Positions 7,437 through 38,532 are shown, counted from the first letter of the stretch. The stretch: 64,000 nucleotides of DNA from an uncultured Candidatus Saccharibacteria bacterium (GCA_964432275.1 CAYSMH010000003.1:6718-70717), one strand, 5' to 3'. The notes: generated from the sequence alone by a model not told the origin. Numbers and translations: made by a program.

Positions 7437-7443
7437 CCCATCC

Positions 7444-8770: not shown

Positions 8771-8771
8771 T

Positions 8772-10424: not shown

Positions 10425-10459
10425 CAGGCGGGTGCTCTAACCAGTTGAGCTACGTCCGC
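10386..10459 (-). tRNA. tRNA-Asp (anticodon GTC)
   Basis: The reverse complement folds as GCGGACG acceptor, D-arm GCTC/GAGC, anticodon stem CCCGC/GCGGG with loop CTGTCAC, and T-arm GCGGG-TTCAAGT-CCCGT. Confidence 0.85.
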
Positions 10460-11492: not shown

Positions 11493-11595
11493 TTGACATA
11501 TAAACCAAAGGGTGTTATCATAGCTCATTACTCATTTTGTGTTATAGGACTTCGCTGTCTGGATGACACGAAGAAATTAATTAAATAACACAATA

Positions 11596-18557: not shown

Positions 18558-19439
18558 ATGGACAAAGAAGCCCTCACTGCACGTATTGCCGAGATAGAAG
18601 CTGCTATGATGGACGGCGCGTTTTGGAATGACGTACCACAGGCACAAGCACAGATCAAAGAACTCCAAGAACTCAAAGACAAGCTCGAAGGCGGTAGTAT
18701 CTATGATAAAGGTGCGGCAATTCTTACGATATTTTCTGGAGCAGGTGGAGATGATGCAGAAGACTTTTCAGCAATGCTTTTGCGTATGTATACCAAATAC
18801 ATAGAACGCAAAGGTTGGAGTATGTCAGTAATTCATAGCAATACCAATGATCATGGTGGGTATCGCAATATTAGTATTGAAATCGAAGGTAAGGGAGTAT
18901 TCGGTAATCTCAAAAATGAAAGCGGGGTTCATCGACTTGTACGCATCTCACCATTTAATGCAAATAGTAAACGGCAAACATCTTTTTCACTTGTTGAAGT
19001 TATTCCCAAGCTTGCCAAGTCTGATACCGCAGTGGTGATTGCAGATAGTGATCTTGATATCTCATTTGCACGAGCAGGAGGACCTGGTGGGCAAAACGTT
19101 AACAAGCGTGAGACTGCAGTGCGTATGGTGCATATACCCACAGGCCTTTCAGTACATGTCACCAGTGAGCGCAGTCAGGAACAAAACAGAGACAAGGCTC
19201 TCGAGCTTCTCAAGGGTAAACTGTATAAACGTCAAGAAGAAGAGCGTATTGCGAAAGAAAAAGGATTGTATATTTCCAAGACTACTGATATCGAATGGGG
19301 TAATCAGATACGTTCCTATGTGCTCCATCCATACAAAATGGTGAAAGATCATCGCACCTCTGTAGAAACAGGAAATGTGGATAAAGTGCTCGAGGACGGA
19401 GACCTTGATGAGTTTATAGAAGCAGAACGAGGTTTGTAG
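18558..19439 (+). CDS. prfB: Peptide chain release factor 2, N-terminally shortened, no programmed frameshift
   Basis: SPF tripeptide (RF2-specific) and GGQ motif. Start placed at MDKEALT immediately after the upstream stop. Confidence 0.8.
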
Positions 19440-21139: not shown

Positions 21140-21213
21140 TGCGGAATCGTCTAATGGTAGGACGCATCCCTCTGGAGGATGTTATCTTGGTTCGAGTCCA
21201 GGTTCCGCAGCCA
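21140..21213 (+). tRNA. tRNA-Gln (anticodon CTG), U1-A72, 3-bp D-stem, CCA encoded
   Basis: Acceptor TGCGGAA/TTCCGCA, anticodon stem CATCC/GGATG with loop CTCTGGA, T-arm CTTGG-TTCGAGT-CCAGG, discriminator G plus CCA. The U1-A72 pair and short D-stem are typical of tRNA-Gln. Confidence 0.8.
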
Positions 21214-21360
21214 TTGACAGATAGCACGAGACGTGTTGAAATAACGATTCTCGAGCTAGCTCAATATACTATACTGAAATTGCTTACCCGCTGAGTGCGA
21301 TAACCAGAACAAAAGACATCTAATTTTAGGTGTCTTTTGTATTTACGATATCTCATCATT

Positions 21361-21759
21361 TTAGGATAGTTCATTTAAAAACTTTTCCGCAGTATCTTTG
21401 GTAGGAGCAATATCGTATATCTCTTCTGGTGTTAAAATCAACAAACCTTTTACTACTCTATCTGGCAACTGTTCTTTTATCCATGAGGTTGCATTATCAA
21501 AATATTCTCCATCTGTTATATATTCAACATTTCCTTTTATCTGATACCCCATCATTTTTTTCCAGCATACAAGAGAAACCGAGGGGTTAAGAAGAATATT
21601 TGCTAGTGTTTTATCAAGAAAATAGTTTATAAGCCAAATTTTCCCTTCCACAATCCTTATTGAAGATACAGGAACAACGTTTATGTTTGTGCCATATGTT
21701 GCAAGTGCTTTTGATTCGGCAGATAAAATAAATTTTTCAATATCTTCATCAATTTTCAT
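21361..21759 (-). CDS. Pyridoxamine 5'-phosphate oxidase-like FMN-binding split-barrel protein
   Basis: Size and sequence pattern of the PNPOx-like / general stress protein 26 family. Confidence 0.5.
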   Translation of the reverse strand: MKIDEDIEKFILSAESKALATYGTNINVVPVSSIRIVEGKIWLINYFLDKTLANILLNPSVSLVCWKKMMGYQIKGNVEYITDGEYFDNATSWIKEQLPDRVVKGLLILTPEEIYDIAPTKDTAEKFLNELS

Positions 21760-21908
21760 ATGTTTTTATTCTTATTTATATTTATAAATAGTACTCCTAA
21801 ATAAGGATAAGTCGATATTTCACACCTAAAATTAGAACCTTAATTCTAGTTACCTTTTAAGAATAATTGAAGAGTAGGCTATTACGATATTTAAGTATTT
21901 AAAATACC

Positions 21909-21937
21909 TTGACAATACCCCCCTGGGGGTATATACT
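21909..21937 (+). promoter_or_regulatory. Sigma70-like promoter (TTGACA-17-TATACT) with CsoR-type operator palindrome ATACCCCCCTGGGGGTAT in the spacer
   Basis: Perfect -35 hexamer, 17-nt spacer consisting exactly of an 18-bp GC-rich perfect inverted repeat, -10 TATACT, and the csoR ATG 7 nt downstream. Confidence 0.7.
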
Positions 21938-21943
21938 CGGTAC

Positions 21944-22207
21944 ATGTCTACGAATAAAGAAAAAATGATACGCCGGTTAAAAATAATTGAAGGTCAAGTA
22001 AGGGGTCTTCAAGACATGATTGAAAAAGGTACATATTGTATCGACGTCATCACGCAGGCATCCGCGATAAAGCAGGGAATTTCCAATGTTGAGGATACTC
22101 TTCTTGAGCATCATTTGGGCCATTGCTTAATTAACCAAATTAAGGATGGAAAAGCTGATAAAGCTACACAAGAAATCATCCAAGTTTATCGTTTAAAGCG
22201 CAAGTAA
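21944..22207 (+). CDS. csoR: CsoR/RcnR-family metal-sensing transcriptional repressor
   Basis: 87 aa. Conserved Cys (YCIDV) and His/Cys (EHHLGHC) metal ligands in the W-X-Y-Z arrangement, upstream of copA. Confidence 0.75.
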   Translation: MSTNKEKMIRRLKIIEGQVRGLQDMIEKGTYCIDVITQASAIKQGISNVEDTLLEHHLGHCLINQIKDGKADKATQEIIQVYRLKRK

Positions 22208-22229
22208 TTTAATAGAAATAATTATTTAT

Positions 22230-22793
22230 ATGAAAAAAATATCATTATATTTCGCAATTAGCATAGCAATTGTATCCGGGGTTCTTGGTCTTGTTATTGG
22301 GTATGCCCTTACTCCTGAATATAGAACTTCAATGTATGAAAAAAACACAATGGATTTAGGACGTGCTGACCGTACGTTTGATTTGCGTTATATTAACGCA
22401 ATGATTGCGCATCATCGGGGCGCAATGCTACTTGCTGAGCAACTCCAAAAAAATACTGATAGACCTGAACTACAAACGCTCGCAGCTGATATATTGAAAG
22501 GAGAGCCTGTGCTTATTGAAGAGCTTTATACATGGAAAAAAGAGTGGTACGGAGATAGTAGAAAAGTGCGTGATCCTATTGTTGCAAACCTTGGTCCAAA
22601 AGATGAAAAATTTGACCTTAGATTTTTAAACGCAATTATTGCACACCATGAAGCTGGTATTGAGATGACTCAAGAAACACGTATTAAATCAAGTAGGGCT
22701 GAAATTCTTAATAATGCAGATGGAGTAGAAGCATTTCTCAAAGGAGGTATAGAAACACTTAAAGGTCTTAGGTCAACATGGTATTCAATTTAA
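22230..22793 (+). CDS. DUF305 domain protein (two DUF305 repeats), membrane-anchored
   Basis: Two copies of the DxRFLxAMIxHHxGAIxM motif. The family is often linked to copper resistance loci. Confidence 0.6.
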
Positions 22794-22807
22794 CTCATTA
22801 CAAAGAT

Positions 22808-25066
22808 ATGAAAAAAGATGTCTATACAATAAAAGGGATGCACTGTGCAAGTTGTGCTTCCATAATTACGAAAACTGTTTCAAAGGTTCCAGGTGTGCGT
22901 GATATATCGGTGAATTTTGCGAGTGAAAAAGCGAATCTTTCGTTTGATCCGTCTGCTACCTCTATTGAAGTAATGAATACAGAGCTTGAGAAGTTAGGAT
23001 ATATGATTATGTCTACTGGTGAAGAAGAATCTGGAGTACATGATCATGCTAAAACTTCTGACAGCGAACTTGTGCTATTACAACAGAAAACACATTTTGT
23101 ACTACCAATCACTGGCGTAATATTTATACTTATGTTATGGGATATTCTCGCACGGACATTTGTTCGTGTTCCAAATCTTCCTATACCTATGGATCTTTTC
23201 AATATAATAAACATGGTACTTGCAACAATAGTATTGTTTTGGGTTGGAAAACCATTTTTAAAAGGTGTTACAAGATTCCTTCGATATAAGGTTGCTAATA
23301 TGGATACCCTTATTGGTATTGGTACGCTCACTGCATATTTATACAGTGTTGTTATAACGCTATTACCATCTATTCGCGACCTATTGCGCGTACCAGAATT
23401 CACCTATTTTGATGTGACTATTGTCGTGATTGGATTTATTACACTTGGAAAATACTTGGAGGCTCGATCAAAAAAGAAAACAGGGGATGCGATTGAAGCT
23501 CTACTCACGCTTCAGGCAAAAACCGCCCTTATTATTCGTCAGGGAGAAGAAGTTGAAATTCCAATCACTGAAGTGGTGCATGGGGATCTTATTGTTGTAA
23601 AGCCCGCCGGTAGAATCCCAGTTGATGGTGTTGTTGCTGAGGGGTCTTCATATGTGGATGAATCTATGATTACTGGCGAGCCAATTCCTGTGGAAAAAGG
23701 GGAGGGAGATACTGTGGTTGCAGGTACGATGAATACTACAGGGTCATTTACATTCAAGGCAACAAAAGTAGGAGCAGAAACTATGCTTGCGAATATTATC
23801 AAAATGGTAGAAGAGGCGCAGGGAAGTCGTGCGCCAATTCAGGCGCTCGCCGATAAAATCTCAAGCGTGTTTGTTCCTATTGTTCTAGTCATTGCCTTTC
23901 TTTCACTAGTTGCATGGCTAACTATTGGCTCAACCTATCTTGGCTTCTCACAAGCACTTTCACTTGGAATACTTTCGTTTGTAAGTGTGCTCGTAATTGC
24001 GTGTCCATGTGCGCTTGGACTTGCTACGCCGACAGCAATTATCGTTGGGGTCGGTAAAGGGGCAAGGAATGGCATTCTTATCAAAGACGCTGCTACGTTG
24101 CAGAAACTTCACGAAGTTACCACGGTTGTTGTTGATAAGACAGGGACTATTACAAAAGGAAAACCAGAGCTAGTGTCTATAAAAAATCTTTCTGATCGGT
24201 CAGATGAAGAGATTATTGCACTACTTGCTGCGCTTGAGAAAAAATCTGAACATCCTATTGCACATGCAATTGTTTCGTATGCGAAAGAAACAGATATACA
24301 AATTCCTCCAGTTGGATCATTTCAGATTGTAAAAGGTGAAGGTATTCGTGGTTCAATACTCGGAATAGAATATTTTGCTGGTAATATCCGGCTTATGGAA
24401 AACCTCAAGCACGCTATAGACATATCAATGATTGAGGCAGAGACAAAAACTGGAAAAACACCAGTGCTACTTGCTACGAAAGAAAAAATACTTGCAATCG
24501 TTATGGTTGCAGATGCGGTAAAGCCTGAAGCAAAAAATGCTATACAGGAGCTTCATAAGAAAGGAATTAAGGTTTACATGTTAACTGGAGATAATATAAA
24601 TACTGCGCAGTTTATTGCTTCTTCTGTGGGAATAGATGAGGTCATTGCCGAAGTAACACCTGAAGATAAACTCAATACAGTCAAAAAATTACAATCATCG
24701 GGAGAAGTAGTCGCAATGGCTGGAGATGGAGTCAATGACGCTCCAGCTCTCGCTCAAGCAGATGTCGGTATTGCTATGGCAACCGGGACAGATGTTGCTA
24801 TAGAGAGCGCGGGAATCACACTCTTGCACGGTGATATTACAAAACTTGTTAAGGCAATCAATCTTTCAAAGATTACGATGCGTGGGATTAAGCAAAATTT
24901 ATTCTGGGCATTTATATATAATATTGTAGGGATACCACTTGCGGCAGGTGTATTTTATCCACTATTTGGATGGCTGCTCAATCCGATATTTGCAGGGCTT
25001 GCAATGGCATTCTCGAGCGTGTCGGTGGTAGGAAACTCATTGCGGTTAAAAGCTAAAAAACTATAA
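22808..25066 (+). CDS. copA: Copper-translocating P1B-type ATPase CopA with N-terminal HMA domain
   Basis: GMHCASCAS (CxxC HMA), TGEP, CPC ([11 protein letters not shown]), DKTGT and [10 protein letters not shown] motifs. Start placed at [10 protein letters not shown] to avoid overlap with the upstream gene. Confidence 0.9.
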
Positions 25067-25068
25067 GT

Positions 25069-26109
25069 ATGAATAATACAGAAAAACAAACATATACATT
25101 TCATATACACGGTATGCACTGCAAGGCATGTATTCTGCTTACAGAGGGGGAACTGAATGAACTGCCGGAAGTAGAACATGCACACGCTAGTCTTTCGAAA
25201 CATACCGTCACGGTGACAGGTATGTTTGAGGGTAAAACGCAGGAAGAATTAGCAGAGCGGTTTACTGAAGTACTCAAATCTCATGGATATACAGTCTCTA
25301 CTCAAAAACAGAATGCGGTAAAAACAAAACGAACACGCGAGTTTTCGATCGCCATTCCTATAGCTATTGTATTTGCTGTACTATTTGTACTTTTGCAAAA
25401 GATGGGGATTGTAAATCTTGTTGATGCAAGTAATGTGTCGTACGGGACTGCATTTGTGATCGGTATCATAGCCTCACTCTCAACATGTATGGCAGTAGTT
25501 GGTGGACTCGTGCTTTCAATGTCGGCTACATTTGCGAGAGAGGGGGATAAAATTCGTCCACAAATTTTGTTTCAACTAGGACGTCTTATCTCATTCTTTA
25601 TTCTCGGAGGTGTTATTGGTGGAATCGGTTCAGCTTTTGCGCTCAACACAACAGCAACATTTATTCTTGGTATCGTAATCGGCATTGTCATGCTTCTTAT
25701 GGGGTTAAACTTGCTCGATGTTTTCCATTTCACAAAAAGATTGCAGCCGGGCATGCCAAAAATGATTTCGAAGAAAGCATTTTCAGTAAGTAAGCTGACA
25801 CATACGTTTACTCCTTTTCTGGTCGGTATTGCGACGTTCTTCCTTCCGTGCGGCTTTACTCAGTCAATGCAGATATACACTCTTTCCACGGGAACCTTTA
25901 TGAAAGGCGGTCTTACCATGCTTGCATATGCACTTGGTACGCTCCCTGTACTGCTCCTTGTGGGGTTTAGTTCATTTAGTATCAAGAAAAGTTCTCGTGC
26001 AGGAATATTCTTTAAATCTGCAGGATTGATTGTTATACTGTTTGCACTGTTCAATCTCATTAATAGCTTGGCGGTAATTGGTCTTATTCCACCTTTATTT
26101 AATTTATAG
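25069..26109 (+). CDS. HMA-domain fused to CcdA/DsbD-like polytopic membrane protein (putative metal/thiol transporter)
   Basis: N-terminal HGMHCKAC HMA motif. The membrane domain has intramembrane Cys motifs (STCM, LPCGF). Confidence 0.5.
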   Translation: MNNTEKQTYTFHIHGMHCKACILLTEGELNELPEVEHAHASLSKHTVTVTGMFEGKTQEELAERFTEVLKSHGYTVSTQKQNAVKTKRTREFSIAIPIAIVFAVLFVLLQKMGIVNLVDASNVSYGTAFVIGIIASLSTCMAVVGGLVLSMSATFAREGDKIRPQILFQLGRLISFFILGGVIGGIGSAFALNTTATFILGIVIGIVMLLMGLNLLDVFHFTKRLQPGMPKMISKKAFSVSKLTHTFTPFLVGIATFFLPCGFTQSMQIYTLSTGTFMKGGLTMLAYALGTLPVLLLVGFSSFSIKKSSRAGIFFKSAGLIVILFALFNLINSLAVIGLIPPLFNL

Positions 26110-26111
26110 CT

Positions 26112-26501
26112 ATGAAAAAAAATATTCTTGCAATCTCTATAGGTATCGTAATTATTGGGTTCGGAATACTCGTAGCGGTAAATAGTGCGCCAAAAGAAGA
26201 AGAGGTGCTTATAAATGTTGTTACTGTAGTTGATGGAAAGCAAATTATTGATTTACGGGCAAAAGGAGGGTTTACTCCTCGTAGTATTGATGCAAAAGCT
26301 GGAATTCCTACAGTGCTTCGTGTTACTACAAAAGGTACATTTGATTGTTCTTCTTCCGTACGAATTCCATCTCTGAACATATCACAAAATTTGCCACAAA
26401 CAGGTGTTACTGAACTTGATCTCGGGATCCAACAGGCGGGGGTACTAAAGGGTAGCTGTGGAATGGGTATGTATCCTTTTGAAATTAATTTCCAAGCGTA
26501 G
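26112..26501 (+). CDS. Secreted cupredoxin-like small protein (putative copper-binding)
   Basis: Signal anchor, beta-rich ~100-aa domain with Cys/Met cluster (CSSS...GSCGMGMY). Confidence 0.35.
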   Translation: MKKNILAISIGIVIIGFGILVAVNSAPKEEEVLINVVTVVDGKQIIDLRAKGGFTPRSIDAKAGIPTVLRVTTKGTFDCSSSVRIPSLNISQNLPQTGVTELDLGIQQAGVLKGSCGMGMYPFEINFQA

Positions 26502-26540
26502 ATGATTTATAAATTTAATAAGTTAAAATATACTATATCT

Positions 26541-26957
26541 ATGAATATACAAAAAATTGTACTTATAAAATTGAGAATCGTAATGGCACTCATTTTTTTG
26601 TGGGCGTTCTTTGATAAGGTCTTTGGTCTTGGATTCGCTACTAAACCAGAAAATGCATGGATAAACGGAGGTTCACCAACAACAGGGTTTTTATCGTTTG
26701 CAACCAAGGGTCCTTTTGCTGAATTTTTTAAAAGTCTTGCTGGTATACCAATTATCGACTGGCTTTTTATGCTCGGCCTACTTTTTGTAGGAATTACTTT
26801 TCTTTTTAATCGATATGTAAAATGGGGAGCAATCGCAGGTGCAGTAATGATGTTCCTTATGTACCTTGCAGTATTTCCTCCAGAAAATAACCCACTCCTC
26901 GACGAACATATTGTCTATGCACTCGTACTTTTATTCATTGGTTTTATAAAAAAATAA
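26541..26957 (+). CDS. DoxX-like small polytopic membrane protein
   Basis: Three or four TM helices, family-like length. Start taken at MNIQKIVLIKL. Confidence 0.35.
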   Translation: MNIQKIVLIKLRIVMALIFLWAFFDKVFGLGFATKPENAWINGGSPTTGFLSFATKGPFAEFFKSLAGIPIIDWLFMLGLLFVGITFLFNRYVKWGAIAGAVMMFLMYLAVFPPENNPLLDEHIVYALVLLFIGFIKK

Positions 26958-26958
26958 C

Positions 26959-28281
26959 CTAATTACTTAAATATATTTTCTTGTTATTCAGAAATATCTT
27001 CCCTTGCAGGTTGTTGAATATCTCTCGCTTCTCAAATATTGTTCCTTCTTTTAATATAAACTTTGCGTAGTTACGAACGTCGACATCTTCAATTTGTATA
27101 TCGTCTTTAATACCCAAAATGCTACGTTGGAATTTCTTAATTCTCGTTATTTCATCATTAATTTTATCTCTCATACCGACTTTGTTTAAATTCACCTTAT
27201 CAAGAAGGGTAGCAAATTGCTTAATCAAATCCTCTTCATTTAGATACCCACCTTTGCAGTTCCTATCTTTCGACCTCGTACAGCCATAGTACACATGTCG
27301 ATTTACTGTTCCATTCTTAAGCTTTTTAAATTTCTCATCTGCGCAAATTCCTGAATCACATAATCCACATATCATGAGCTTGGTGAATGCAAACTCTTTG
27401 TTTTCAACTCTTAGTACCTGACTTTTCACTTGTGCTTGTACTGCGTCATATAGTTCTTTTGTTATCAGTGCTTCATGTTTTCCTTGATACCAGTTACCGC
27501 TTTTAAGAGGATATTCAAATACTCCATAATAGAATGGATTTTCTAATATGCGATAGATATTTCCTAAACTTATATTCTTGTTTCCTTGTAATGTCTTGAA
27601 GTTCAAATCAAACTTTAACCAGTGGTGCAGCTTTCTTCCAGTCCATTTTTCATATGCAACTTTCTCAAACATCTTCTTTACAATTGGTCCTCGGTCTGGA
27701 TCAATGAGGGTCTCACACTTTCGATCCATTCGCTTTTCTTTCAAGTATCCTGTTGGAGCAGGGGCAGGCCATAATCCCATTTCAACTCGTGTTTTCAGTC
27801 CACGCTTTACATTTATACTTTTATTATCATTCTCAAGCTTTGCTTGCGAACAAAGAATCATCAGGAGGAATTTCTCGTTAGGGGAGTTACGAAACTGCTG
27901 CCCATACGTTCGTATTTCAATCAGCTTTTTCTCATCCATTAAATCAACTACTGATCCTAAATCTCCCGCATTTCTACTCAATCTATCAGGTGCCCAAGTT
28001 AATATGCCTGTATATCTTCCAGATCTGATGTCGCTCAGTAATTCTTTAAATACTGGTCGTTGACCAGAGTCTTTCGCAGAATGAGCCTCTCTCCGAACGT
28101 CTATTATTTCCAACCCATCTCGCTCTGCAATGGCCATCATTTCTTTTACTTGAGAATCAATGGAGAGTGCTTGTTTTTCATCTGATTCAGTTGATTTTCG
28201 AGCATAGAGGCAGTACTTCACCTTTTCTGCTGCTATAAGAGCAGGGAAGCCCGTTTGGGCTGTTTTAGCCAGTATTTCCAT
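26959..28281 (-). CDS. Large serine recombinase (paralog of the one in island 1)
   Basis: YARKS catalytic motif, DRLSRN, recombinase domain and Cys cluster CGLCDSG...YYGCTRS. It is collinear with the 8772..10424 protein. Confidence 0.85.
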   Translation of the reverse strand: MEILAKTAQTGFPALIAAEKVKYCLYARKSTESDEKQALSIDSQVKEMMAIAERDGLEIIDVRREAHSAKDSGQRPVFKELLSDIRSGRYTGILTWAPDRLSRNAGDLGSVVDLMDEKKLIEIRTYGQQFRNSPNEKFLLMILCSQAKLENDNKSINVKRGLKTRVEMGLWPAPAPTGYLKEKRMDRKCETLIDPDRGPIVKKMFEKVAYEKWTGRKLHHWLKFDLNFKTLQGNKNISLGNIYRILENPFYYGVFEYPLKSGNWYQGKHEALITKELYDAVQAQVKSQVLRVENKEFAFTKLMICGLCDSGICADEKFKKLKNGTVNRHVYYGCTRSKDRNCKGGYLNEEDLIKQFATLLDKVNLNKVGMRDKINDEITRIKKFQRSILGIKDDIQIEDVDVRNYAKFILKEGTIFEKREIFNNLQGKIFLNNKKIYLSN

Positions 28282-28403
28282 ATCTATATTAATGTCAGAC
28301 CAGTTGCGGAAGTAAAGCTAGACCATTACTCGGCATCACTTTACAAAATCTGTAAAGCATGCTATAATACGACTAATAAGTTCATTGTAATTTAGCTTGC
28401 GAA

Positions 28404-28453
28404 TGGTCATAGCTACGAGGTTCTGATTTCTCGGAATTTCATAGCTATGACCA
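28404..28453. repeat. Inverted repeat TGGTCATAGCTA-N26-TAGCTATGACCA, candidate serine-recombinase att site
   Basis: Perfect 12-bp arms with a 26-bp spacer, ~120 bp upstream of the recombinase start. Confidence 0.4.
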
Positions 28454-28505
28454 CGAATTGGTTGTAGTTCTGTCCCGGAGTAGGGAAAATTAAAACCATA
28501 ACGAC

Positions 28506-29141
28506 ATGGAAAAAACATTTGCATCTGCGGATCTCACCGCAGGACAACTGAACGCTATTGTAAAAAAGCTTGGCGGTCATGAAGGTGCTTTGAAATTTTT
28601 ACGCGGCGAAACTTCGGTTTCCGAACCTGAAAAAAGCTGGCGTGAGCATGACGGAGTGATTTACTTCACCGTCACTTCCGATGGTGCCACCGGTGCCGAA
28701 TGGATTGCCCGTCTTGAGAAAGGTGGATACCGCGTTGGCGATTACGCCAAGAGCGTTCTACTTTCAAAAGATTTTAAACCTACAAACGGTGTTACAACCG
28801 AAGTTGGAGTGTTGAAGGGTATGCTGTTTGAAGACAATCAACGCATTACCAAAAACATCCGTAAAAATGCCGAAGATCGCAAACTGGAAACACCAAATGC
28901 AGAGATAGCTTGCCTTATCCGTGAAAAATTCACTGATGAAGACATCGAAGCGATGGGTTTATGGTGGATCGTTGCAATGCATGAACCGATCAATGATTCC
29001 GGTGGTGATCCGCGCTTGCTCCTTGCGGACCGTAGTGACGATGGGCGTTGGCTGAACTCGGCGTATGGCATGCCTGACTTCAGGTGGATCCGTGGGAGCG
29101 GGTTCGCGTTTGCTGTTTCGCAAGTTAGTTCTCAAAACTAA
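28506..29141 (+). CDS. DGR target protein (variable C-terminal CLec/FGE-like segment containing the VR)
   Basis: The 3' 128 bp is the VR copy of a downstream TR. The differing codons correspond to AAC/AAT/A-containing codons in the TR. Confidence 0.7.
   Translation: MEKTFASADLTAGQLNAIVKKLGGHEGALKFLRGETSVSEPEKSWREHDGVIYFTVTSDGATGAEWIARLEKGGYRVGDYAKSVLLSKDFKPTNGVTTEVGVLKGMLFEDNQRITKNIRKNAEDRKLETPNAEIACLIREKFTDEDIEAMGLWWIVAMHEPINDSGGDPRLLLADRSDDGRWLNSAYGMPDFRWIRGSGFAFAVSQVSSQN
28996..29123 (+). repeat. DGR variable repeat (VR)
   Basis: 128-bp direct repeat of 29483..29610 at an offset of 487 bp. There are 16 mismatches, and 15 of them are positions where the downstream copy has A. Confidence 0.75.
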
Positions 29142-29482
29142 GACGCTGATCACTTCAGCTCTTTGAATTTAGTCCTTAGCCCTTGTTCCGCTACCATATT
29201 TCTGGTTTGGAATGAGGGCTAATTTTTTTTGCATAAACTTGTATAATGAGTACGGTAATAGGTGTAGTGCGGACGGCAAAAAGATTTATTCTGGGCTTTC
29301 CGCTACCGAATCCAGTATCCATACATCGAGAGTACTTAAGGTCACGGCTTCAGGTAGAGTGGTGTATGCAGAAACTTCAAAAAATGAAGATACTTGGTGT
29401 GAGAGATTAGGGCATTACGATGCCAGATACAATACAACCCTGAGAGTATTCGAGGGGTGGTGATACAGAAGATCTCTTGCAC

Positions 29483-29610
29483 ATTCCGATGGTGATCCGA
29501 ACTTGCTCAACGCGAACCGTAATGACGATGGGCGTTGGCTGAACACGGCGTATGACAAGCCTGACAACAGGTGGAACCGTGGGAACGGGTTCGCGTTTGC
29601 TGTTTCGCAA
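29483..29610 (+). repeat. DGR template repeat (TR), non-coding, adenine-rich AAC codon pattern
   Basis: Same repeat. Adenines occupy the variable positions. The shared 3' block GGGTTCGCGTTTGCTGTTTCGCAA is invariant (IMH-like), followed by a CTCTCCCA/TGGGAGAG hairpin plus T-run. Confidence 0.75.
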
Positions 29611-29635
29611 TTCTTTTCATTTTCTCTCCCAATAC

Positions 29636-29881
29636 TTACTGTTTGGGAGAGTTTTGTTTTGTGAGTTGGCCACTCCAACCGCCTAGCATTCTGCCGGCTT
29701 CATCAAGCTTCACCGAAAGTGCAATATATTTTTTATCGTCAATTGATTTAGTCTCCCAGAGTACAAGTAGTAGTAAGCGTAGAGTGTCAGCTTTTCTAAT
29801 GGCAAGACGCACATATGGGTGCTTTTCCTCCCGTGAGAGAAAGCTTGCGGCAGAAATTGCTTCTATTATTTCGACAAACAA
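29636..29881 (-). CDS. Avd-like (accessory variability determinant) four-helix-bundle protein, N-terminally short, TTG start
   Basis: The C-terminal segment ...LLLLVLWETKSIDDKKYIALSVKLDEAGRMLGGW parallels the Bordetella phage Avd C-terminus (...LAMLRFWLRFLAG...AEVGRILGSWI), a member of the 23S-IVS four-helix-bundle family. Confidence 0.5.
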   Translation of the reverse strand: MFVEIIEAISAASFLSREEKHPYVRLAIRKADTLRLLLLVLWETKSIDDKKYIALSVKLDEAGRMLGGWSGQLTKQNSPKQ

Positions 29882-30145
29882 AGTATCGATGCGTTGACCA
29901 AGAGAAACGGGGAGATGATTTCACGGTCACAAGCTCCGCACTTTAGTGCGCAAACAAAACTTCCGCTCTTTAGGCGGAAGTAGTTTATTTAAAAGTCCGT
30001 CAGCAGCAGCTACCATTACTGGAAGATCAATAAATGGATGGACTGCATGGAAAGATGAGCATGGAATAACGTTAAATGATAATTTAAGACAATAAATATA
30101 GAAATCAAAATTTTACACACAGCTTATCAGGGCTATAATAGAATT

Positions 30146-30535
30146 ATGGATAGGATATCTTCAAAAATAGCACCAATAGCCGGTATTATCATTCTGGTAA
30201 GCTATATATGGATTGCTGTATTTGGACTTCTCCAGACTGCTCATGCTTCAAATAGTCATACGCATTCAGCCTGTCCTTATATGGTTGGCCAGCATTCTAT
30301 TTGCTCCATGGATGTGTTTGACCATCTTCAAGCATGGCAGGCATTCTCTACAGTTACTGTGCCCGTATTAGAGATACTTGCTCTTGCAGTACTTTTATTT
30401 GTCACTGCATGGTTTTTACACGCACCACCACCCCTGTTAGGGCATTTATATACTAAACAAACTTATAGCCAAATACGTGAACCGTTATATCGGCGACTAT
30501 TTTCGCGTGGTATTCTTAACCCAAAAGCACCCTAA
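30146..30535 (+). CDS. Small two-TM membrane protein with Cys/His motif (CPYMVGQHSICSMD)
   Basis: ORF with hydrophobic helices inside a metal-resistance context. Confidence 0.35.
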   Translation: MDRISSKIAPIAGIIILVSYIWIAVFGLLQTAHASNSHTHSACPYMVGQHSICSMDVFDHLQAWQAFSTVTVPVLEILALAVLLFVTAWFLHAPPPLLGHLYTKQTYSQIREPLYRRLFSRGILNPKAP

Positions 30536-30581
30536 TAAGCACTCTGTAATATTTATTATCATTTAACTTAAATTAAAACTT

Positions 30582-30995
30582 ATGGAACAAAATAAAATAG
30601 TAACAGGAGTAATCTGTTTGGTTGCGGGGGTACTTCTCGGGGCAGTTATATTCGGTGGCAAAGGTGATACTGCTCCTGCAATAAGTAATACTAATAATAC
30701 TCATCATGTCATGCCGGATGGTTCTAATATGAACAACAGCATGGATATGGCCTCTATGATGGCAGGTATGAACGCAAATCTTTCAGGAAAGACTGGAGAT
30801 ACGTTTGATCAAGCATTTATCACCGAAATGATTATGCACCACGAAGGGGCAGTAGAGATGGCAGAGCTAGCTTTAACGAATGCTAAACATGCAGAAATTA
30901 AAACACTGGCTAATGCAATTATTTCTGCCCAGAATAGTGAAATTGCTCAGATGAAAACATGGCTTAAAAACTGGTATAAGGTAGAAACACAATAA
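30582..30995 (+). CDS. DUF305 protein with Met/His-rich putative Cu(I)-binding segment
   Basis: DQAFITEMIMHHEGAVEMA motif, preceded by HHVMPDGSNMNNSMDMASMMAGMN. Confidence 0.6.
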   Translation: MEQNKIVTGVICLVAGVLLGAVIFGGKGDTAPAISNTNNTHHVMPDGSNMNNSMDMASMMAGMNANLSGKTGDTFDQAFITEMIMHHEGAVEMAELALTNAKHAEIKTLANAIISAQNSEIAQMKTWLKNWYKVETQ

Positions 30996-30996
30996 T

Positions 30997-31494
30997 ATGA
31001 AAAAAATAAGTTTCGGAAGTTGGATAGGGATACTACTTATAGTATTAATTGGATTTGCTATATGGTGGACACCAAATGCTAAAGAAGCAAAGATTGAGCA
31101 ACAAAAAGAACAGACCAGTCGCGAAGTTGCGTTATTGTGTACAACAGATATGGCAACGCAATATCATATTCATCCCGAGTTACAAATTCTAATAAATGGA
31201 GAAAATAACTCTATTCCAAAAAATCTCGGCATTAAATCAAATTGTATGACCTCAATTCATACACATGATGAAATAGGAGTAATACATGTTGAAGCCCCAG
31301 TACAAAAAGACTTCACACTCGGAGACTTCTTTGCGGTATGGCAAAAGGATTTCTCAAAAAGTAAGATTCTTGATTACGTAGTAGATGAACAACATGAGAT
31401 TTCTGTTACAATTAATGGCGTACCGGTTGATACGTTCGAAAATACTATTCTTGGTGACAAAGATAAAATAGTCATCTCATATAAAACAAAATAA
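30997..31494 (+). CDS. Secreted His-rich hypothetical protein (possible metal-binding partner of the NirK-like protein)
   Basis: Signal anchor, HIHPE and IHTHDEIGVIHVE motifs. The stop overlaps the next gene start. Confidence 0.4.
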   Translation: MKKISFGSWIGILLIVLIGFAIWWTPNAKEAKIEQQKEQTSREVALLCTTDMATQYHIHPELQILINGENNSIPKNLGIKSNCMTSIHTHDEIGVIHVEAPVQKDFTLGDFFAVWQKDFSKSKILDYVVDEQHEISVTINGVPVDTFENTILGDKDKIVISYKTK

Positions 31495-31495
31495 T

Positions 31496-32731
31496 ATGTT
31501 TACTTATATACTATTTGAAATAATCGCAGCCCTCGTTGGAGGTATTGCCATTATTATAATTCTCGTACAATTGTATAAGAATAAGAGTGTAAAAAATTTC
31601 TTCAAAAAGAAAGTCGTTATAATACCCCTAGTATTGTTGGTCACTGCTTTCTTTGTTGGACTACTTGCGAACCGAACGTATCCACCACATTTTGCAATGC
31701 CAGCATGGATGAATTCTCATGCACCAGGCGGCGTTCCAGCATCAATTCCATTCCGTAATATCGTTGAATTCTTCACCTATAAAAACCGATTTGAAAAAGT
31801 GGCTGATATAGGTGCAGATCCGAATGCGGTCCCAGAACTTGCAGAGCCAGATCATGATAATGTGGTGAAGATAAGTTTAACGGCAAAAGAAGTCATCTCA
31901 GAAATTGCTCCAGGTATTTACTATAACTATTGGACATTCAATAAGCAGGTTCCAGGTCCGATGCTTCGGGTTAGAGAAGGGGATACTGTCGAGCTTACAC
32001 TCAGCAATGACCCGAGCAGTTTGCATGATCATAGTATTGATCTGCATGCAGTAAATGGTCCGGGCGGAGGGGCGGAATTCACACATCTTAAACCGGGAGA
32101 AACAAAAACCTTCCGATGGAAAGCTATGAATCCTGGATTGTATATTTATCACTGTGCGATGCCGAATGTGAGCACGCACAATTCTCATGGACAATATGGA
32201 CTCATATTGGTTGAACCAAAAGAAGGACTGCCTCCTGTTGATAAAGAGTTCTATGTGGTGCAAGGAGAACTTTACACAAATGGGGAAATTGGAAAGAAAG
32301 GTCTTGTCCCTTTTAATTCAAAAGATCTCATTGCGGGAAACCCAAATTACGTACTATTCAACGGTCGTGTAGAGTCTACACCTCGTATGGCAGCGGAAGT
32401 TGGTGATAAGGTTAGAATCTATGTTGGAAATGGCGGAGTAAATCTTATCTCATCGTTCCATGTCATAGGTGAAATCTTTGACACTGTCTATCCAGAAGGC
32501 GCAATAGGAAAAGAATCAGCAAAACTCCAGAACGTTCAGACAACAGCTGTTCTTCCTGGTGGTTCATCAATTGTAGAATTCACAGTTGATTATCCTGGCA
32601 AATACCTACTTGTCGATCATGCACTAGCACGATTAAATAAAGGTGCATGGGCAGTACTGGAAGTTACGGGTGAGAAAAACCCTGAAATTATAGAATCGGT
32701 AGGTGATACCAATCACGATCATACTCACTAA
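31496..32731 (+). CDS. Copper-containing nitrite reductase (NirK)-like two-domain multicopper oxidase, N-terminal two-TM anchor
   Basis: HDHSIDLHAVNGPGGG (NirK H-x4-H type-1/type-2 Cu motif), YHCAMPNVSTH (His-Cys...His) and SSFHVIGEIFD (NirK C-domain signature). Confidence 0.6.
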   Translation: MFTYILFEIIAALVGGIAIIIILVQLYKNKSVKNFFKKKVVIIPLVLLVTAFFVGLLANRTYPPHFAMPAWMNSHAPGGVPASIPFRNIVEFFTYKNRFEKVADIGADPNAVPELAEPDHDNVVKISLTAKEVISEIAPGIYYNYWTFNKQVPGPMLRVREGDTVELTLSNDPSSLHDHSIDLHAVNGPGGGAEFTHLKPGETKTFRWKAMNPGLYIYHCAMPNVSTHNSHGQYGLILVEPKEGLPPVDKEFYVVQGELYTNGEIGKKGLVPFNSKDLIAGNPNYVLFNGRVESTPRMAAEVGDKVRIYVGNGGVNLISSFHVIGEIFDTVYPEGAIGKESAKLQNVQTTAVLPGGSSIVEFTVDYPGKYLLVDHALARLNKGAWAVLEVTGEKNPEIIESVGDTNHDHTH

Positions 32732-33196
32732 TACAAAAACACCAGTCGAAAGCTGGTGTTTTTGTTATGAACTTATTGCTGAGGATGGCGCTCAAGAAAG
32801 TCGGATATCATCGCTTCTTGCTGTTCTATAAACTCAGGTCCATTGTGTTGTTCAAGGTATTTACGTAAGAATCCTACTTCTGCTCGTAAAGCCATTAGTA
32901 CACCTTTATCCTCTCCAAAACGAGTGGTTAATTCTTTTACAAATTCTTGATAAGTCATAATAAGATAATATCACTACTATTTTAAAAGTTACAATAAGGC
33001 GTAATTTAGACAACCCACCCTGTGTCACTTTTGTAACTTTTTAAGGTGCTCGAGACGCGTCGAAATGATATTATAAAATCATTAAAAATAACCTTACAGG
33101 GCAAAGCTAGCCATGGTTCTAGCTCGAGACGGCCAGCAGTTATAAAAATACCGGCTTAGATGAAATAATATACGACTCCAGTCGTCAAACCTATAT

Positions 33197-33652
33197 ATGA
33201 AAACAAAACAATTTATAGTACTTGCGGTTGCGGTGATAGTTGTCGTCATTGTGGCGCTTGGCATTGGTAAAAAGCAGGTAGTAGAAGAGCGTGCGTCTAT
33301 GGTGGGGTGCTATGTGGCAACACTTGGTAAAGATGTCTATACACTCACCATCACGTCGGAGCAGCGAGGTACAGTGCTCGGTACGGTGTCATTTGATAAC
33401 TTCGAAAAAGATAGCTCAAGTGGCACATTTGTCGGTACGTACAACGATGGTCTGCTCGTGGGTGACTACTCGTTTCAGTCAGAAGGTATGTCATCCGTGC
33501 GACAGCTCGCATTTCAGAAAGTAGATAATGGTTTTGTGCCAGGGTACGGAGAAGTAGTCGTGGTTGATGGTCGTGAGACATTTGTAGATAGTACAAACCT
33601 CTCGTACGACAACTCTACAGTATTTATCAAGCAAGCAACCTGTGCTCAATAA
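33197..33652 (+). CDS. Membrane-anchored hypothetical protein
   Basis: N-terminal TM, then a beta-rich domain. GC is higher than in the island. Confidence 0.4.
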   Translation: MKTKQFIVLAVAVIVVVIVALGIGKKQVVEERASMVGCYVATLGKDVYTLTITSEQRGTVLGTVSFDNFEKDSSSGTFVGTYNDGLLVGDYSFQSEGMSSVRQLAFQKVDNGFVPGYGEVVVVDGRETFVDSTNLSYDNSTVFIKQATCAQ

Positions 33653-33820
33653 AGCTTGTGAAATAATGTCTACTACACCATAAAGTTGACGAAGTAGTAT
33701 TCACATTTCTAATAAAAATCACACTTACCGTATCGTGATATAGTACAAGTACATAGTAGTAAGATGGATCGCGCCGGATGCTATGCATTAGTATAGTTAT
33801 TTTGTATTTTTGAAACCATT

Positions 33821-35904: not shown

Positions 35905-36103
35905 CTCTGCTCCGAACATTAGAGGATCTTCGAAACTCTTTAACGTAAAAAGAGGGGATTATAGCCTGGTGAATAAAGACTTTTTATATATTGACAAATA
36001 ATAGATTATATGCTATTATAATTCTATAGTTCTTTGAGATAGTTTTAGTGTTTAACACAGACCCTAACACACGAGTTTGTGCTAAACACTAAAACTTCAA
36101 ATA

Positions 36104-36634
36104 ATGAATAAGTATAAAACAATTCTTCGTCTACTCTGGTTTACAATTGCGTTTTGCTGCCTCTTTCCTCTATTTTACTATAAGAATCGAGGAATGGGTA
36201 AGGACGGACTTTTTATCGGAGGAGAAACAACTACTTCAAAATTAAAAGATTTGTTAAAAAGAGGAAAATTTCTTTTGTGTTGGCAATTCTTCTGGGCTAA
36301 ATGGAACCCTGTTGTAACTTATGAGACAACAAGACCACTTTACCAGTTATGCGGAGGCCACAAAAATCCATTTTTTGCTTCCATTATAACTTTCTTGTAC
36401 AGTGGAATTTTTCTTCACGGTTTCTCAATAATGAGTCCTTATTACATTTATTTAGTTATTGTAGGTAAATTTACCGCACATAACCTGCCTATTATTAATG
36501 TAATGATCTGGTTTATTTTAGGGTTACCTGTAGCAATAGCAAATACTTTAAGATTAAGAAGAATAAACAAAAGGGAAAAAAGATATGATGCTAAATTGGT
36601 ATACCATTTTCCACAAACAGCCATCTCTGCATAG
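36104..36634 (+). CDS. Polytopic membrane hypothetical protein
   Basis: Several hydrophobic helices. Confidence 0.35.
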   Translation: MNKYKTILRLLWFTIAFCCLFPLFYYKNRGMGKDGLFIGGETTTSKLKDLLKRGKFLLCWQFFWAKWNPVVTYETTRPLYQLCGGHKNPFFASIITFLYSGIFLHGFSIMSPYYIYLVIVGKFTAHNLPIINVMIWFILGLPVAIANTLRLRRINKREKRYDAKLVYHFPQTAISA

Positions 36635-36696
36635 AGGTGGCTTTTTCATATATCTATATCTAGAGCCTATCCTGTGCCAGTAGGGGACCCATATGC

Positions 36697-36724
36697 TTGA
36701 CTATATGAACAAATATGCTATAAT
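36697..36724 (+). promoter_or_regulatory. Sigma70-like promoter TTGACT-16-TATAAT upstream of the M50 protease gene
   Basis: Near-consensus hexamers with 16-nt spacing, ~65 nt upstream of the ATG. Confidence 0.4.
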
Positions 36725-36790
36725 GAAACAAAAAGGAATTGCCAAATCCTACTAAATCAAAAAAGAGGCCAAAACATTAAAAACTTAATA

Positions 36791-37729
36791 ATGAAAAGTA
36801 AAGTAAACACGTTAGTTGCTCTAGCTATTAAGAGCCCAAAAATTTTTAAGCTCATAAAGGCGATAAAGTTGTTAAAATTTGCTAAACCGATGGTAACAAT
36901 GATTTCAATTGTTATTTCAGTTGGGGCATATGCAATCATATACGACCCATGGATTGCCGTAGGATTAGTAGCACTCATCTTTGTTCATGAAATGGGACAT
37001 GTGGTGGCTATGAATAACCAGGGATTTAAGACAAGTGGACCCGTCTTCATTCCATTTTTAGGTGCAGCATTGTTTGCGCCAAAAGATATGAATAGGAGAC
37101 AGGAAGCAATAATCGGAATCGGTGGGCCGATACTCGGTTCGATTGCCGCATTTCTACTTATCGGATTATATTTTATCTTTCACGCAAAGTGGATGTTGAT
37201 GATGGGGTATGTTGGGATTTTCTTAAATCTCTTCAACATGATACCTATCTCACCGCTCGATGGCGGAAGGGTAACACAAGCAGTTGGCAAATGGTTCAAG
37301 TTTGTTGGATTTGCAATGCTTCTCGCATTGACGATCTCAATGGGACAGCCAGGAATGTTATTAATTTGGATTATTGTTTTGTTTGACTTTCATTTTATTC
37401 CAGTTAAAGGAAGATTTGCTCTTGCTCTAATCACGGAACTAGCAATGATAGTGCTGATTGCAGCAAAGGTAGGTATCCATAACGATAGTGAATTCTGGGT
37501 TACCTGTTTTGATGCCATCGTCGGCGGGATCTATCTTGTACTTATTGGACTCGCTATTCGTGGTAATTCAAAAGAGCTGGAAAATGCATTAGATGAAAAT
37601 TCAAAGCGACCACATCTTACAGCACAGGCAAAAATTAATTGGTTTCTCGTATGGTTGATTACAACTGCGATACTTTTCACAACAATGTTGCTATTGGCGC
37701 CATCGTTGAAAATTATTATGGTTTCATAA
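36791..37729 (+). CDS. Site-2 protease family zinc metalloprotease (peptidase M50)
   Basis: HExxH (VHEMGH) in a TM helix and an LDGG motif (PISPLDGGRV). Confidence 0.7.
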   Translation: MKSKVNTLVALAIKSPKIFKLIKAIKLLKFAKPMVTMISIVISVGAYAIIYDPWIAVGLVALIFVHEMGHVVAMNNQGFKTSGPVFIPFLGAALFAPKDMNRRQEAIIGIGGPILGSIAAFLLIGLYFIFHAKWMLMMGYVGIFLNLFNMIPISPLDGGRVTQAVGKWFKFVGFAMLLALTISMGQPGMLLIWIIVLFDFHFIPVKGRFALALITELAMIVLIAAKVGIHNDSEFWVTCFDAIVGGIYLVLIGLAIRGNSKELENALDENSKRPHLTAQAKINWFLVWLITTAILFTTMLLLAPSLKIIMVS

Positions 37730-37932
37730 AGACCGTACTCGAAAATTGCGAAAAAAGGCTATTTTGTACAAAATAGGCGATTACTTATTCAGGTAATCGC
37801 CTATTATTATTTTCGATATATTATTTAAAAATTAGATCCGAATGTGAGATGCTGTTCTAAATATAGTGAAATAAAAAACCACATTGATAATATCAATGTG
37901 GTAATACGATTATGCGGGTAGGCTGGTCATGT

Positions 37933-38343: not shown

Positions 38344-38532
38344 TTGTTTGATTATTTAATTGTTAGATTTATTGAGCCATCTCTAATCCCAATAAGGAGC
38401 AGGGAAAACCCAACAAAATCAACACTAAATAACCGAATATATCGAAGAACTACTATAGTTATATAATAGCATGAATAATAAGAAAAGTCAATAAAAGCGC
38501 TCCGAACCTTAGAGGATATTCAGATTTAATAA

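Follow-up and report, generated by a model that had tools for sequence, protein, structure and literature searches.

A copper and NirK gene island at the 3′ end of tRNA-Gln in a Patescibacteria genome, probably placed there by its own large serine recombinase

How did a block of copper and nitrite reductase genes come to lie against a tRNA-Gln gene in a very small bacterial genome, and where does the block end? We analysed a stretch of 64,000 nucleotides (nt) from an uncultured Candidatus Saccharibacteria bacterium (GCA_964432275.1, CAYSMH010000003.1:6718-70717), hereafter the window. An initial annotation, made from the sequence alone, had placed in it, at 21214-33190, a copper-homeostasis and NirK island with a serine recombinase, inserted next to tRNA-Gln. 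A mobile genomic island is real, and its host is an ultra-small bacterium of the Patescibacteria, or candidate phyla radiation (CPR). Our reading is that window positions 21212-33137 form one integrative genomic island of 11,926 bp (~11.9 kb), placed at the 3′ end of tRNA-Gln(CTG) by its own large serine recombinase (LSR), called SerRec2 below. We give this reading a probability of roughly 0.7. Its best boundaries are two copies of CAGC, at 21208-21211 and 33134-33137, and the end proposed initially, 33190, lies ~50 bp from the best right end, 33137.

Species-representative genomes were scanned with the flanking FtsX protein, which gave nine close siblings (loci L010 to L018). Junctions were inspected base by base in the closest, L010, whose FtsX is 94% identical. 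Homology of L010 with the window halts at 21211 and resumes at 33682, and 21212-33681 is absent there. Its tRNA-Gln, which is 100% identical to that of the window up to 21211, is directly followed by homologues of the window genes at 33821, 34428 and 35077. Two features frame this comparison:

21140-21213, plus strand: tRNA-Gln(CTG), the integration target (ARAGORN, Rfam)
33197-33652, plus strand: 151-amino-acid (aa) membrane-anchored protein (p151), outside the island limits; GC 45.6% and third-position GC (GC3) 0.43, both host-like

Homologues of p151 lie downstream of tRNA-Gln in L013 and L015, and p151 is missing from L010. As this gene is host-like and falls outside the limits, the L010 comparison overstates the island by ~540 bp.

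The window gene set is found at tRNA-Gln in no other sibling: the eight remaining loci carry different islands there, or nothing. In L018, an orthologous recombinase, 72% identical, is found at the same tRNA-Gln with a cargo of ThsB-TIR and T5orf172 genes. The copper cassette of L011 is decayed: of its recombinase only the C-terminal third is left, and a remnant of a second recombinase is also present. In L016 and L017, recombinases of the type found in another island of the window (island 1, described at the end) overlap tRNA-Gln. Exact-protein look-ups of the flanking genes, aimed at a same-species empty site, returned either nothing or short contigs, from a few samples, that match the window exactly or almost so. 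Among Logan contigs, four independent ones whose FtsX and flanks are the same as those of the window, or nearly so, all stop within or at tRNA-Gln, as expected of a strain-variable junction.

Composition also sets the island apart. Its GC is 39.2%, against 44.9% for the backbone shared with L010, and the first kilobase is at 35.0%; the drop after tRNA-Gln is therefore real, though smaller than the ~33% estimated initially. In the low-GC parts, 21212-28325 and 30146-33681, GC lies under every size-matched backbone window. Tetranucleotide distance is 0.27-0.35 in every 3.5-kb island window, and the backbone maximum is 0.245, which places the island outside the backbone range on both measures. 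The proposal of an inserted island beside tRNA-Gln was thus confirmed by its absence from L010, by the different content that other siblings have at this tRNA, and by its GC and tetranucleotides. The segment has the marks of a genomic island, namely sporadic occurrence among relatives, atypical composition and an integrase of its own with a defined target, the 3′ end of tRNA-Gln, here and in 13 related loci.

Could the segment be ancestral, and simply lost in L010 by deletion or through a binning or assembly artefact, with the recombinase a domesticated or dead passenger? L010 is a metagenome-assembled genome (MAG), and assemblies can skip strain-variable segments. It is also without the host-like p151 that L013 and L015 have, which makes part of the difference a loss in L010 or an unrelated gain, and a decayed retroelement in the island, described below, implies some age. 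We nevertheless hold this explanation to be very unlikely, given that the eight other siblings lack the gene set as well, that the composition is atypical, that the homology break falls exactly at the tRNA end with family-specific terminal motifs at both island ends, and that the recombinase is full length and belongs to a highly conserved family.

The recombinase and a symmetric sequence next to it are as follows:

26959-28281, minus strand: large serine recombinase SerRec2, 440 aa (PF00239 E=2e-20, PF07508 E=7e-13, PF13408 E=3e-5)
28404-28453, no strand assigned: imperfect palindrome upstream of the recombinase, two 23-nt arms, each with CATAGCTA

The N-terminal catalytic domain of SerRec2 is recognisable by the resolvase match (PF00239, residues 25-169) and the motifs YARKS and DRLSRN. 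As for the remaining LSR domains, PF07508 scores above its cutoff, and the PF13408 zinc ribbon is borderline (24.8 against 25.3 bits) with its Cys cluster visible. Compared with its family, the protein is intact and full length. A metagenome scan yielded more than 468 relatives, the best 80 of which are 64-76% identical over near full length, and five IMG/VR contigs encode further ones. These best 80 metagenomic loci and the five IMG/VR contigs make up the 85 loci in which tRNAs were called by ARAGORN. In 29 of the 85, the first tRNA downstream is convergent with the recombinase and 0.1-9.8 kb off (13 Gln, 14 Ser, 1 Asn and 1 Trp). Only one upstream tRNA was found in all 85 loci, and many contigs end at the downstream tRNA. 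Palindromes similar to that of the window (CATAGCTATG or GATAGCA..TGCTATC) precede the recombinase gene in relatives, and the one at 28404-28453 is probably an operator or accessory site, not an element end.

A Pfam census of the 98 open reading frames (ORFs) lying between recombinase and tRNA in the family loci gave mostly type I or IIG restriction-modification genes, helicases, phospholipase D (PLD) nucleases and AbiEii-like ATPases, with HlyD/ABC and copper genes in the minority. The suggestion that serine-recombinase elements move different cargos was borne out, both by the ThsB-TIR and T5orf172 genes of L018 and by the mainly restriction-modification cargo of the family. The five IMG/VR contigs, with recombinases 51-62% identical that are also found by tRNA-Ser, raise the question whether the island is a prophage or phage-satellite remnant instead of a plain cargo island. 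Retroelements of the kind that it contains are often phage-borne, and in L078 the neighbours of the recombinase include a ParB-methylase and a small-terminase-like HTH protein. The Pfam-scanned ORFs of the island, on the other hand, gave no capsid, portal, terminase, tail or replication gene, 11.9 kb is too small for a tailed phage, and the family-wide cargo consists of restriction-modification, defence and metal resistance genes. We regard a phage origin as highly improbable, the least credible of the explanations weighed here.

Both ends of the island carry sequences that recur in the family:

21212-21265, plus strand: left island end, the element-side arm of the left attachment site (attL), with the motif TTGACAGATAGCACGAGACG at 21214-21233 and an inverted partial copy, TCTCGAGCTAG, at 21249-21259
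21309-21340, no strand assigned: terminator-like hairpin between tRNA and cargo, 15-nt arms, 93% complementary
33046-33138, plus strand: far-end terminal module, the element-side arm of the right attachment site (attR), with two direct GCTCGAGACG repeats and the end GGTTCTAGCTCGAGACGGCCAGCA

The tRNA-Gln is host-derived up to 21211, and its final two bases (CA) are supplied by the island, which gives an encoded CCA end. In the eight sibling loci without a directly adjacent SerRec2-type element (L010-L017), the tRNA ends in GCAGCA(N), not CCA. The predicted empty site of the window, GCAGC followed by AGTTATAAAAATACC, has this same GCAGCA(N) form. On the island side, about 20 of 30 occupied sites in relatives have a left-end motif, N3-5 followed by CG(A/T)G(N)TAGC(A/T)CGAG, right behind the 3′ end of the tRNA. 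The hairpin, together with the preceding CAGAACAAAA, has homologous counterparts in L018, L056, L062 and L063, and is kept at the left ends of related elements.

The far end is marked by a block of 95 nt that contains GTGCTCGAGACGCGTCG, a spacer of ~50 nt and GGTTCTAGCTCGAGACGGCCAGCA, whose terminal CCAGC(C)A resembles the acceptor end of tRNA-Gln; the crossover in it is predicted at the CAGC of 33134-33137. At least 12 family loci of the tRNA-Gln type have this module in the same orientation, at a distance of 2.7-10 kb upstream of their recombinase. It is present in L011 and L016 too, and was not found in loci of the tRNA-Ser type. Two of the latter have instead a pseudo tRNA-Ser end: in L095 a 3′ end at the far side (20 of 24 positions), and in L101 an end matching at 17 of 24, followed by the left-end motif. 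Motifs conserved in the family at both ends and the 4-nt CAGC repeat would fit the short attachment sites of an LSR, which have a central 2-bp crossover and flank the inserted element as hybrid attL and attR; the crossover position given here is a prediction.

Other readings of these sequences were tried and given up. The far-end module was rejected as an RNA gene: Rfam gave no match to it, its sequences did not fold into a consensus RNA structure (-0.26 kcal/mol), and it was therefore taken as a DNA site. A right end ~45 nt upstream of the recombinase ATG, suggested by the alignment of the window with L018, was dropped, since 70-350 nt conserved in the family, and genes, lie beyond it. A comparison of the left end with the region upstream of the recombinase gave no consistent signal of dyad symmetry, and a search for a long displaced tRNA-Gln fragment inside the island found none.

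Elements of this type also occur in tandem. In L011, L054, L056, L059 and L089, the far-end module is directly followed by the left-end motif of the next element, and L101 is arranged likewise. Such junctions look like intact phage-type attachment sites (attP) inside the chromosome, and arrays and decayed remnants of such elements are common; in L011 the tandem or remnant sites are at 11468-11659 and 18623-19120. Positions 12137-12229 of L016 are the same far-end module as 33046-33138 of the window (an exact 17-mer and 24-mer), in a similar flank.

From these ends a route of integration can be proposed. The attP site would consist of the far-end module (33046-33137) joined to the left-end motif (21212-21233), the predicted junction of the circular form being TCTAGCTCGAGACGGCCAGC joined to CATTGACAGATAGCACGAGACG. 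The last 23 nt of the module would imitate the T-loop-to-discriminator part of tRNA-Gln, and the bacterial site (attB) would be that same part of the tRNA plus its trailer, with a predicted empty junction of GGTTCGAGTCCAGGTTCCGCAGC joined to AGTTATAAAAATACCGGCTTAG. Strand exchange would occur within or beside the CAGC that closes the acceptor stem and discriminator. With a crossover there, the tRNA body would remain host-encoded and intact, and the element would give it a new trailer beginning with CA, hence an encoded CCA, as is seen in most occupied Gln sites. The element may be mobile at present, presumably with the help of a directionality factor.

The middle of the island is different in nature. 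It contains the remains of a diversity-generating retroelement (DGR), with a variable repeat (VR) and a template repeat (TR):

28506-29141, plus strand: DGR target gene, 211 aa, VR at 28996-29123
29483-29610, plus strand: DGR template repeat TR, with no reverse transcriptase gene after it
29636-29881, minus strand: bAvd-like accessory protein fragment, 81 aa (PF22296 E=2e-4, 22 bits against a cutoff of 40, profile positions 65-104 only)

As in known DGRs, the mismatches between VR and TR are adenine-specific (128 nt, 88% identical, 14 of 15 mismatches at TR adenines), VR lies at the C-terminus of the target protein, and an Avd-like gene is near. Unlike them, the element has no reverse transcriptase in the ORFs scanned, and ORFs in the interval from TR to the following gene do not exceed 108 aa. 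An RVT domain was sought in the main long ORFs of the 64-kb window, leaving aside frames that overlap larger genes, rpoB and rpoC and, outside 19-36 kb, any ORF shorter than 100 aa; none of those scanned has one. The Avd fragment is truncated and opposite in strand to the target gene and TR, an unusual DGR gene order, and VR has the same sequence in L005, a contig from an independent sample. The DGR looks like a decayed, inactivated remnant, and of the DGR cassette announced by the initial annotation the VR/TR pair is genuine, the reverse transcriptase was not found and Avd is reduced to a fragment. A C-terminal protein fragment (..INGWTAWKDEHG..) is also present at 29946-30095, and Rfam gave a weak RT-7 match at 29326-29379 (19 bits, E=0.23).

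A number of observations weigh against one element with the ends given above. A same-species or same-strain empty site was not available, and L010 is only ~80% identical to the window in this region. L010 is also without 33138-33681, the part with p151, and the predicted right junction is consequently not matched exactly. The repeat that flanks the island is only 4 nt long (CAGC), and the likeness between the far-end module and the 3′ end of the window tRNA-Gln is modest (13 of 23 positions in register, ~1e-3 per site). L016 shares the identical far-end 24-mer yet has an island-1-type recombinase at tRNA-Gln; either a SerRec2 element since lost from L016 has left its right end behind, or both recombinase lineages use the far-end module. 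An excised or circular form was not seen, IMG/VR gave zero matches to the predicted attP junction or the far-end motif, and no recombination directionality factor was identified. GC is uneven along the island, with 37.9%, 44% and 39.5% in its three segments, and the 44% of the DGR segment is host-like. In L011, the sequence past the recombinase remnant matches what L013 has after tRNA-Gln, which suggests an element end near the recombinase and leaves ~520 bp unaccounted for. Finally, the recombinase is mid-island and gene fragments lie in the middle, and an accreted composite would look alike.

Such a composite, of at least two units, would comprise a mobile element of 7.1-7.3 kb with SerRec2 and the CsoR-CopA genes (21212 to ~28330-28500, recombinase at the end), and an older, immobile remnant with the DGR, the second copper genes and NirK (~28500-33137), accreted at a tRNA-Gln hotspot. 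Besides fitting the three GC values, it would explain why decay is confined to the middle (the Avd fragment, the absent reverse transcriptase, the protein C-terminus at 29946-30095) and why homology of the window with relatives upstream of the recombinase ends ~40 nt from the ATG. L011 has the copper cassette and recombinase as a compact unit, followed by DUF5946, Cyt-b5 and DoxX genes, which are the post-tRNA-Gln content of L013; its second recombinase remnant proves accretion at the locus, and the six tandem junctions point the same way. A tandem junction should have both the left-end motif and the tRNA-like far-end module, however, and neither is found near 28.3-28.5 kb. An internal recombinase is normal in the family, in which the far-end module lies kilobases past the recombinase with genes between. 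The L011 junction is a deletion that took away the N-terminus of the recombinase, and one Logan contig covers 22846-30491 without variation. We therefore judge a composite origin unlikely, and keep to a single island ending at 33137.

What does the island bring to its host? Gene calls were checked by Pfam and NCBIfam profile searches, and a first set of genes, most of them related to copper, lies between tRNA-Gln and the recombinase:

21361-21759, minus strand: PNPOx-like protein (pyridoxamine 5′-phosphate oxidase family), 132 aa (PF01243 E=1.9e-11)
21944-22207, plus strand: CsoR-type Cu(I)-sensing repressor (PF02583 E=3.2e-24)
22230-22793, plus strand: DUF305 protein with two repeats (PF03713 E=3e-18, two matched stretches), a candidate extracytoplasmic metal-binding protein
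22778-25066, plus strand: CopA, P1B-type Cu(I)-exporting ATPase (HMA, E1-E2 and HAD domains; TIGR01511 607 bits against a cutoff of 397)
25069-26109, plus strand: HMA domain fused to a DsbD_2/CcdA-like membrane protein (PF13386 E=8e-33, PF00403 E=5e-9)
26112-26501, plus strand: cupredoxin-like secreted protein (PF13473 E=1.9e-8)
26502-26957, plus strand: DoxX-like membrane protein, a weak call (PF07681 E=0.0023, 19 bits, under the cutoff of 23.6)

CsoR has the Trns_repr_metal fold and a visible Cys-His-Cys pattern of Cu(I) ligands (C32...H..C), which places it in its family. CopA has the motifs of a P1B-1 ATPase, namely CPC at residue 409, DKTGT at 453 and an N-terminal HMA domain (CxxC). The cupredoxin-like protein has Cys and Met residues and lacks the canonical His ligands of type-1 copper. 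A cassette formed by a cupredoxin gene abutting the recombinase, the HMA-DsbD_2 fusion, CopA and DUF305 recurs in at least six loci (L045, L047, L055, L064, L109 and L011); a homologue of the cupredoxin gene abuts the 3′ end of the recombinase gene in L045, L047, L055, L064 and L011. The genes listed by the initial annotation were nearly all supported by profiles, the DoxX-like one weakly, and the PNPOx-like gene at 21361-21759 had been overlooked.

A second set follows the DGR remnant:

30146-30535, plus strand: Cys/His-rich small membrane protein, no Pfam or NCBIfam match
30582-30995, plus strand: Met-rich DUF305/CopM-like putative copper-binding protein (PF03713 E=7e-21; NF049983, CopM, 69.5 bits, below the cutoff of 90)
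30997-31494, plus strand: 165-aa secreted or anchored protein with His clusters, no Pfam or NCBIfam family match
31496-32731, plus strand: NirK, membrane-anchored copper nitrite reductase, class II, AniA-like, 411 aa, two cupredoxin domains (TIGR02376)
32773-32958, minus strand: 61-aa ORF, at the same position and on the same strand as a 63-aa ORF by NirK in L125-L127

Homologues of the Cys/His-rich membrane protein are paired with DUF305 in L078, L111 and L122. The homology of the 61-aa and 63-aa ORFs is suggested by position and size, not by alignment.

NirK scores 313.7 bits with the NCBIfam equivalog TIGR02376, above its cutoff of 296.3, and matches PDB 2zoo (E=5e-98) and AniA, 1kbv (both ~1e-96), across the whole catalytic region, with the ligands aligned. 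Its type-2 copper and catalytic residues (H184, H219, H375, D182 and H322) align with those of AniA and 2zoo and are invariant in 12 relatives. At the type-1 copper site, His179, Cys220 and His228 are present, and the axial Met of the canonical His-Cys-His-Met set is replaced by Gln233 (GQYG against GMYG). As other cupredoxins are known in which Gln takes the axial position, the site is probably functional. This Gln is invariant in all 12 sampled members of the Patescibacteria NirK clade. Sampled members of the clade also share a double membrane anchor at the N-terminus and a C-terminal tail rich in His. The equivalog score and the PDB matches ruled out a two-domain laccase-type multicopper oxidase. 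The complete Cu(I) sensing and export module with a genuine NirK, as initially described, was thereby upheld by the Pfam and NCBIfam calls.

Judging from family membership, CsoR would derepress copA on binding Cu(I), which CopA would then export. Copper handling outside the membrane would fall to the HMA-DsbD_2 fusion and to the cupredoxin-like and DUF305/CopM-like proteins. Nitric oxide (NO) would be formed from nitrite by NirK, to which the second copper-handling set may also furnish copper. The benefit of the cargo is likely to be copper tolerance together with nitrite reduction or detoxification. We considered the cupredoxin-like protein as electron donor of NirK and found this unlikely, as it has no His ligands and is found in five relatives with CopA in cassettes without a detected NirK homologue.

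In the closest NirK relatives found outside the strain of the window, a PNPOx_N gene lies immediately upstream of an 83%-identical nirK (L125, 3390-5052; L126; L127). The window has its PNPOx-like gene at the island end away from NirK, and on the other strand. This arrangement suggests a functional pairing separated by rearrangement.

The initial annotation had also called this cargo unusual for a reduced genome, which does not hold. More than 100 full-length NirK relatives at 70% identity or above were found, and the named ones belong to Candidatus Paceibacterota. In the literature, nirK is reported from more than 140 Patescibacteria MAGs, which represent more than 50 lineages (PMC12931201), and copA is described as a common gene of the phylum (PMC8672522); the cargo is therefore not exotic there. 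With known CsoR-CopA operons and Patescibacteria NirK the island shares the C-H-C ligands of CsoR, the HMA, CPC and DKTGT motifs of CopA and a NirK above the TIGR02376 cutoff. It differs from them in that both sets are cargo of one mobile island, and in the Gln axial ligand and N-terminal membrane anchor of its NirK. The copper-efflux and NirK genes of the window are horizontally acquired, strain-variable accessories, not core metabolism. This is relevant to the nitrogen-cycle and metal-tolerance roles assigned to CPR MAGs, as such islands break assemblies at tRNAs and risk mis-binning.

Among known elements, the island resembles the staphylococcal SCCmec/Ccr cassettes in being small and non-conjugative, with an internal LSR acting site-specifically at the 3′ end of a conserved RNA-related gene, and in its resistance cargo and its tandem or composite arrays; in Staphylococcus, copper cargo of the COMER/ACME type is found adjacent to SCCmec. 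Unlike SCCmec, it has SerRec2 and not Ccr (CcrB is the best NCBIfam match of SerRec2, at 109.6 bits, far under the equivalog cutoff of 900), its target is a tRNA and not rlmH, it has a single recombinase and not a ccrAB pair, and its host belongs to the Patescibacteria. Insertion at a tRNA 3′ end that keeps the tRNA, a distal sequence like a tRNA end, accessory cargo, atypical composition and tandem hotspots are all shared with the tyrosine-integrase islands of the Islander type. The difference lies in the serine recombinase and in a flank identity of ~4 nt, as opposed to a long duplicated tRNA fragment.

The tycheposons of Prochlorococcus are likewise small cargo elements at tRNA genes of streamlined genomes, with ecologically relevant cargo and variable islands (bioRxiv 10.1101/2020.12.28.424599). 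They are overwhelmingly based on tyrosine recombinases, LSRs being present in only 27 of 937 elements of this type (same reference), and often have replication or packaging modules, none of which was seen in the island of the window.

Next to the recombinase, relatives of SerRec2 have a further feature, the LOOT RNA (Rfam RF03000). It was found 140-290 nt upstream of the recombinase, on the divergent strand, in 4 of the 4 family loci tested, with scores of 68-80 bits against a gathering score of 46.4:

L044, 9706-9838, minus strand relative to the recombinase: LOOT RNA (Rfam)
L062, 9684-9807, minus strand relative to the recombinase: LOOT RNA (Rfam)
L064, 588-716, minus strand relative to the recombinase: LOOT RNA (Rfam)
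L080, 2509-2635, minus strand relative to the recombinase: LOOT RNA (Rfam)

An nhmmer profile of the LOOT block matches 45 of the 85 family loci, and the block is absent from the window. An ORF of 52-60 aa begins just past LOOT, which may be the leader of this ORF or a regulator of the recombinase. The main text of the paper that described the motif (Weinberg 2017) mentions no link with a recombinase.

An integrase island at a tRNA is textbook, and copper and NirK cargo was already known in the phylum. What is non-standard is the serine type of the integrase. To our knowledge, tRNA genes have been thought to be targets of tyrosine integrases only. Streptococcal integrative and conjugative elements (ICEs) with serine integrases target protein-coding genes (PMC4701971), and in the part of the literature covered we found no prior description of the SerRec2 family or of serine integrases at tRNA genes. 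The new points are tRNA targeting by a serine recombinase family and, in relatives, the link with LOOT.

Taken together, the observations allow a broader proposal, which we put forward as tentative and somewhat short of an even chance. SerRec2 may represent a very large LSR clade, largely of Patescibacteria, whose natural attB would be a tRNA 3′ end (Gln, Ser, Asn or Trp), with an attP arm imitating the T-loop-to-discriminator segment of the target. Its elements would be the main vehicles of defence and metal-resistance genes in reduced genomes, and LOOT, beside the recombinase in most members though not in the window, may control the recombinase or the neighbouring small ORF. If so, LOOT would gain its first functional context, this orphan RNA being tied to a mobile element, and the family would show how defence and metal resistance circulate in ultra-small symbiotic bacteria. 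A huge and compact family of serine integrases, with short predictable targets at tRNA ends and defined element ends, is also of practical interest, such enzymes being sought for genome engineering; for Patescibacteria, those of the SerRec2 type would be the first obvious tools with which to manipulate the genome.

The window has a second serine recombinase, in island 1 (1942-10384), which lies against tRNA-Asp (10385-10459, minus strand) and has its far end at ~1905-1945. There, a pseudo tRNA-Asp 3′ end (..CAGTCCGCGCCA) is joined to the original trailer seen in L010, and the island is flanked by CGCGC. Island 1 also encodes a tyrosine integrase (7444-8559). Its serine recombinase has 550 aa and a 3′ end that overlaps the target tRNA-Asp, whereas SerRec2 has 440 aa and is internal. 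The two proteins are 34% identical over residues 20-339 (E=4e-50), and their C-terminal 100-200 residues cannot be aligned. The idea that they are paralogues of one family was partly right: the N-terminal 320 residues are homologous and the strategy is shared, but identity is low, the C-terminal third is not homologous, and length and position differ. On sequence grounds, they are distinct LSR lineages that share a tRNA-end strategy.

Compared with the island-1 enzyme of the window, the enzymes of that type found at tRNA-Gln in L016 and L017 reach only 34-38% identity (38% for L017). The cargo of L017 has 83-87% protein identity to that of island 1, and this combination of close cargo and distant recombinase indicates that recombinase modules have been swapped between cargos.

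L010 further lacks two other parts of the window, island 1 (1942-10384) and 35932-38524. The latter, a third L010-absent segment, has 465 bp in its place in L010 and is very AT-rich, with a GC of 34.2%. Besides an M50 peptidase (36791-37729), it encodes proteins of 176 and 136 aa, and no integrase was seen in it.

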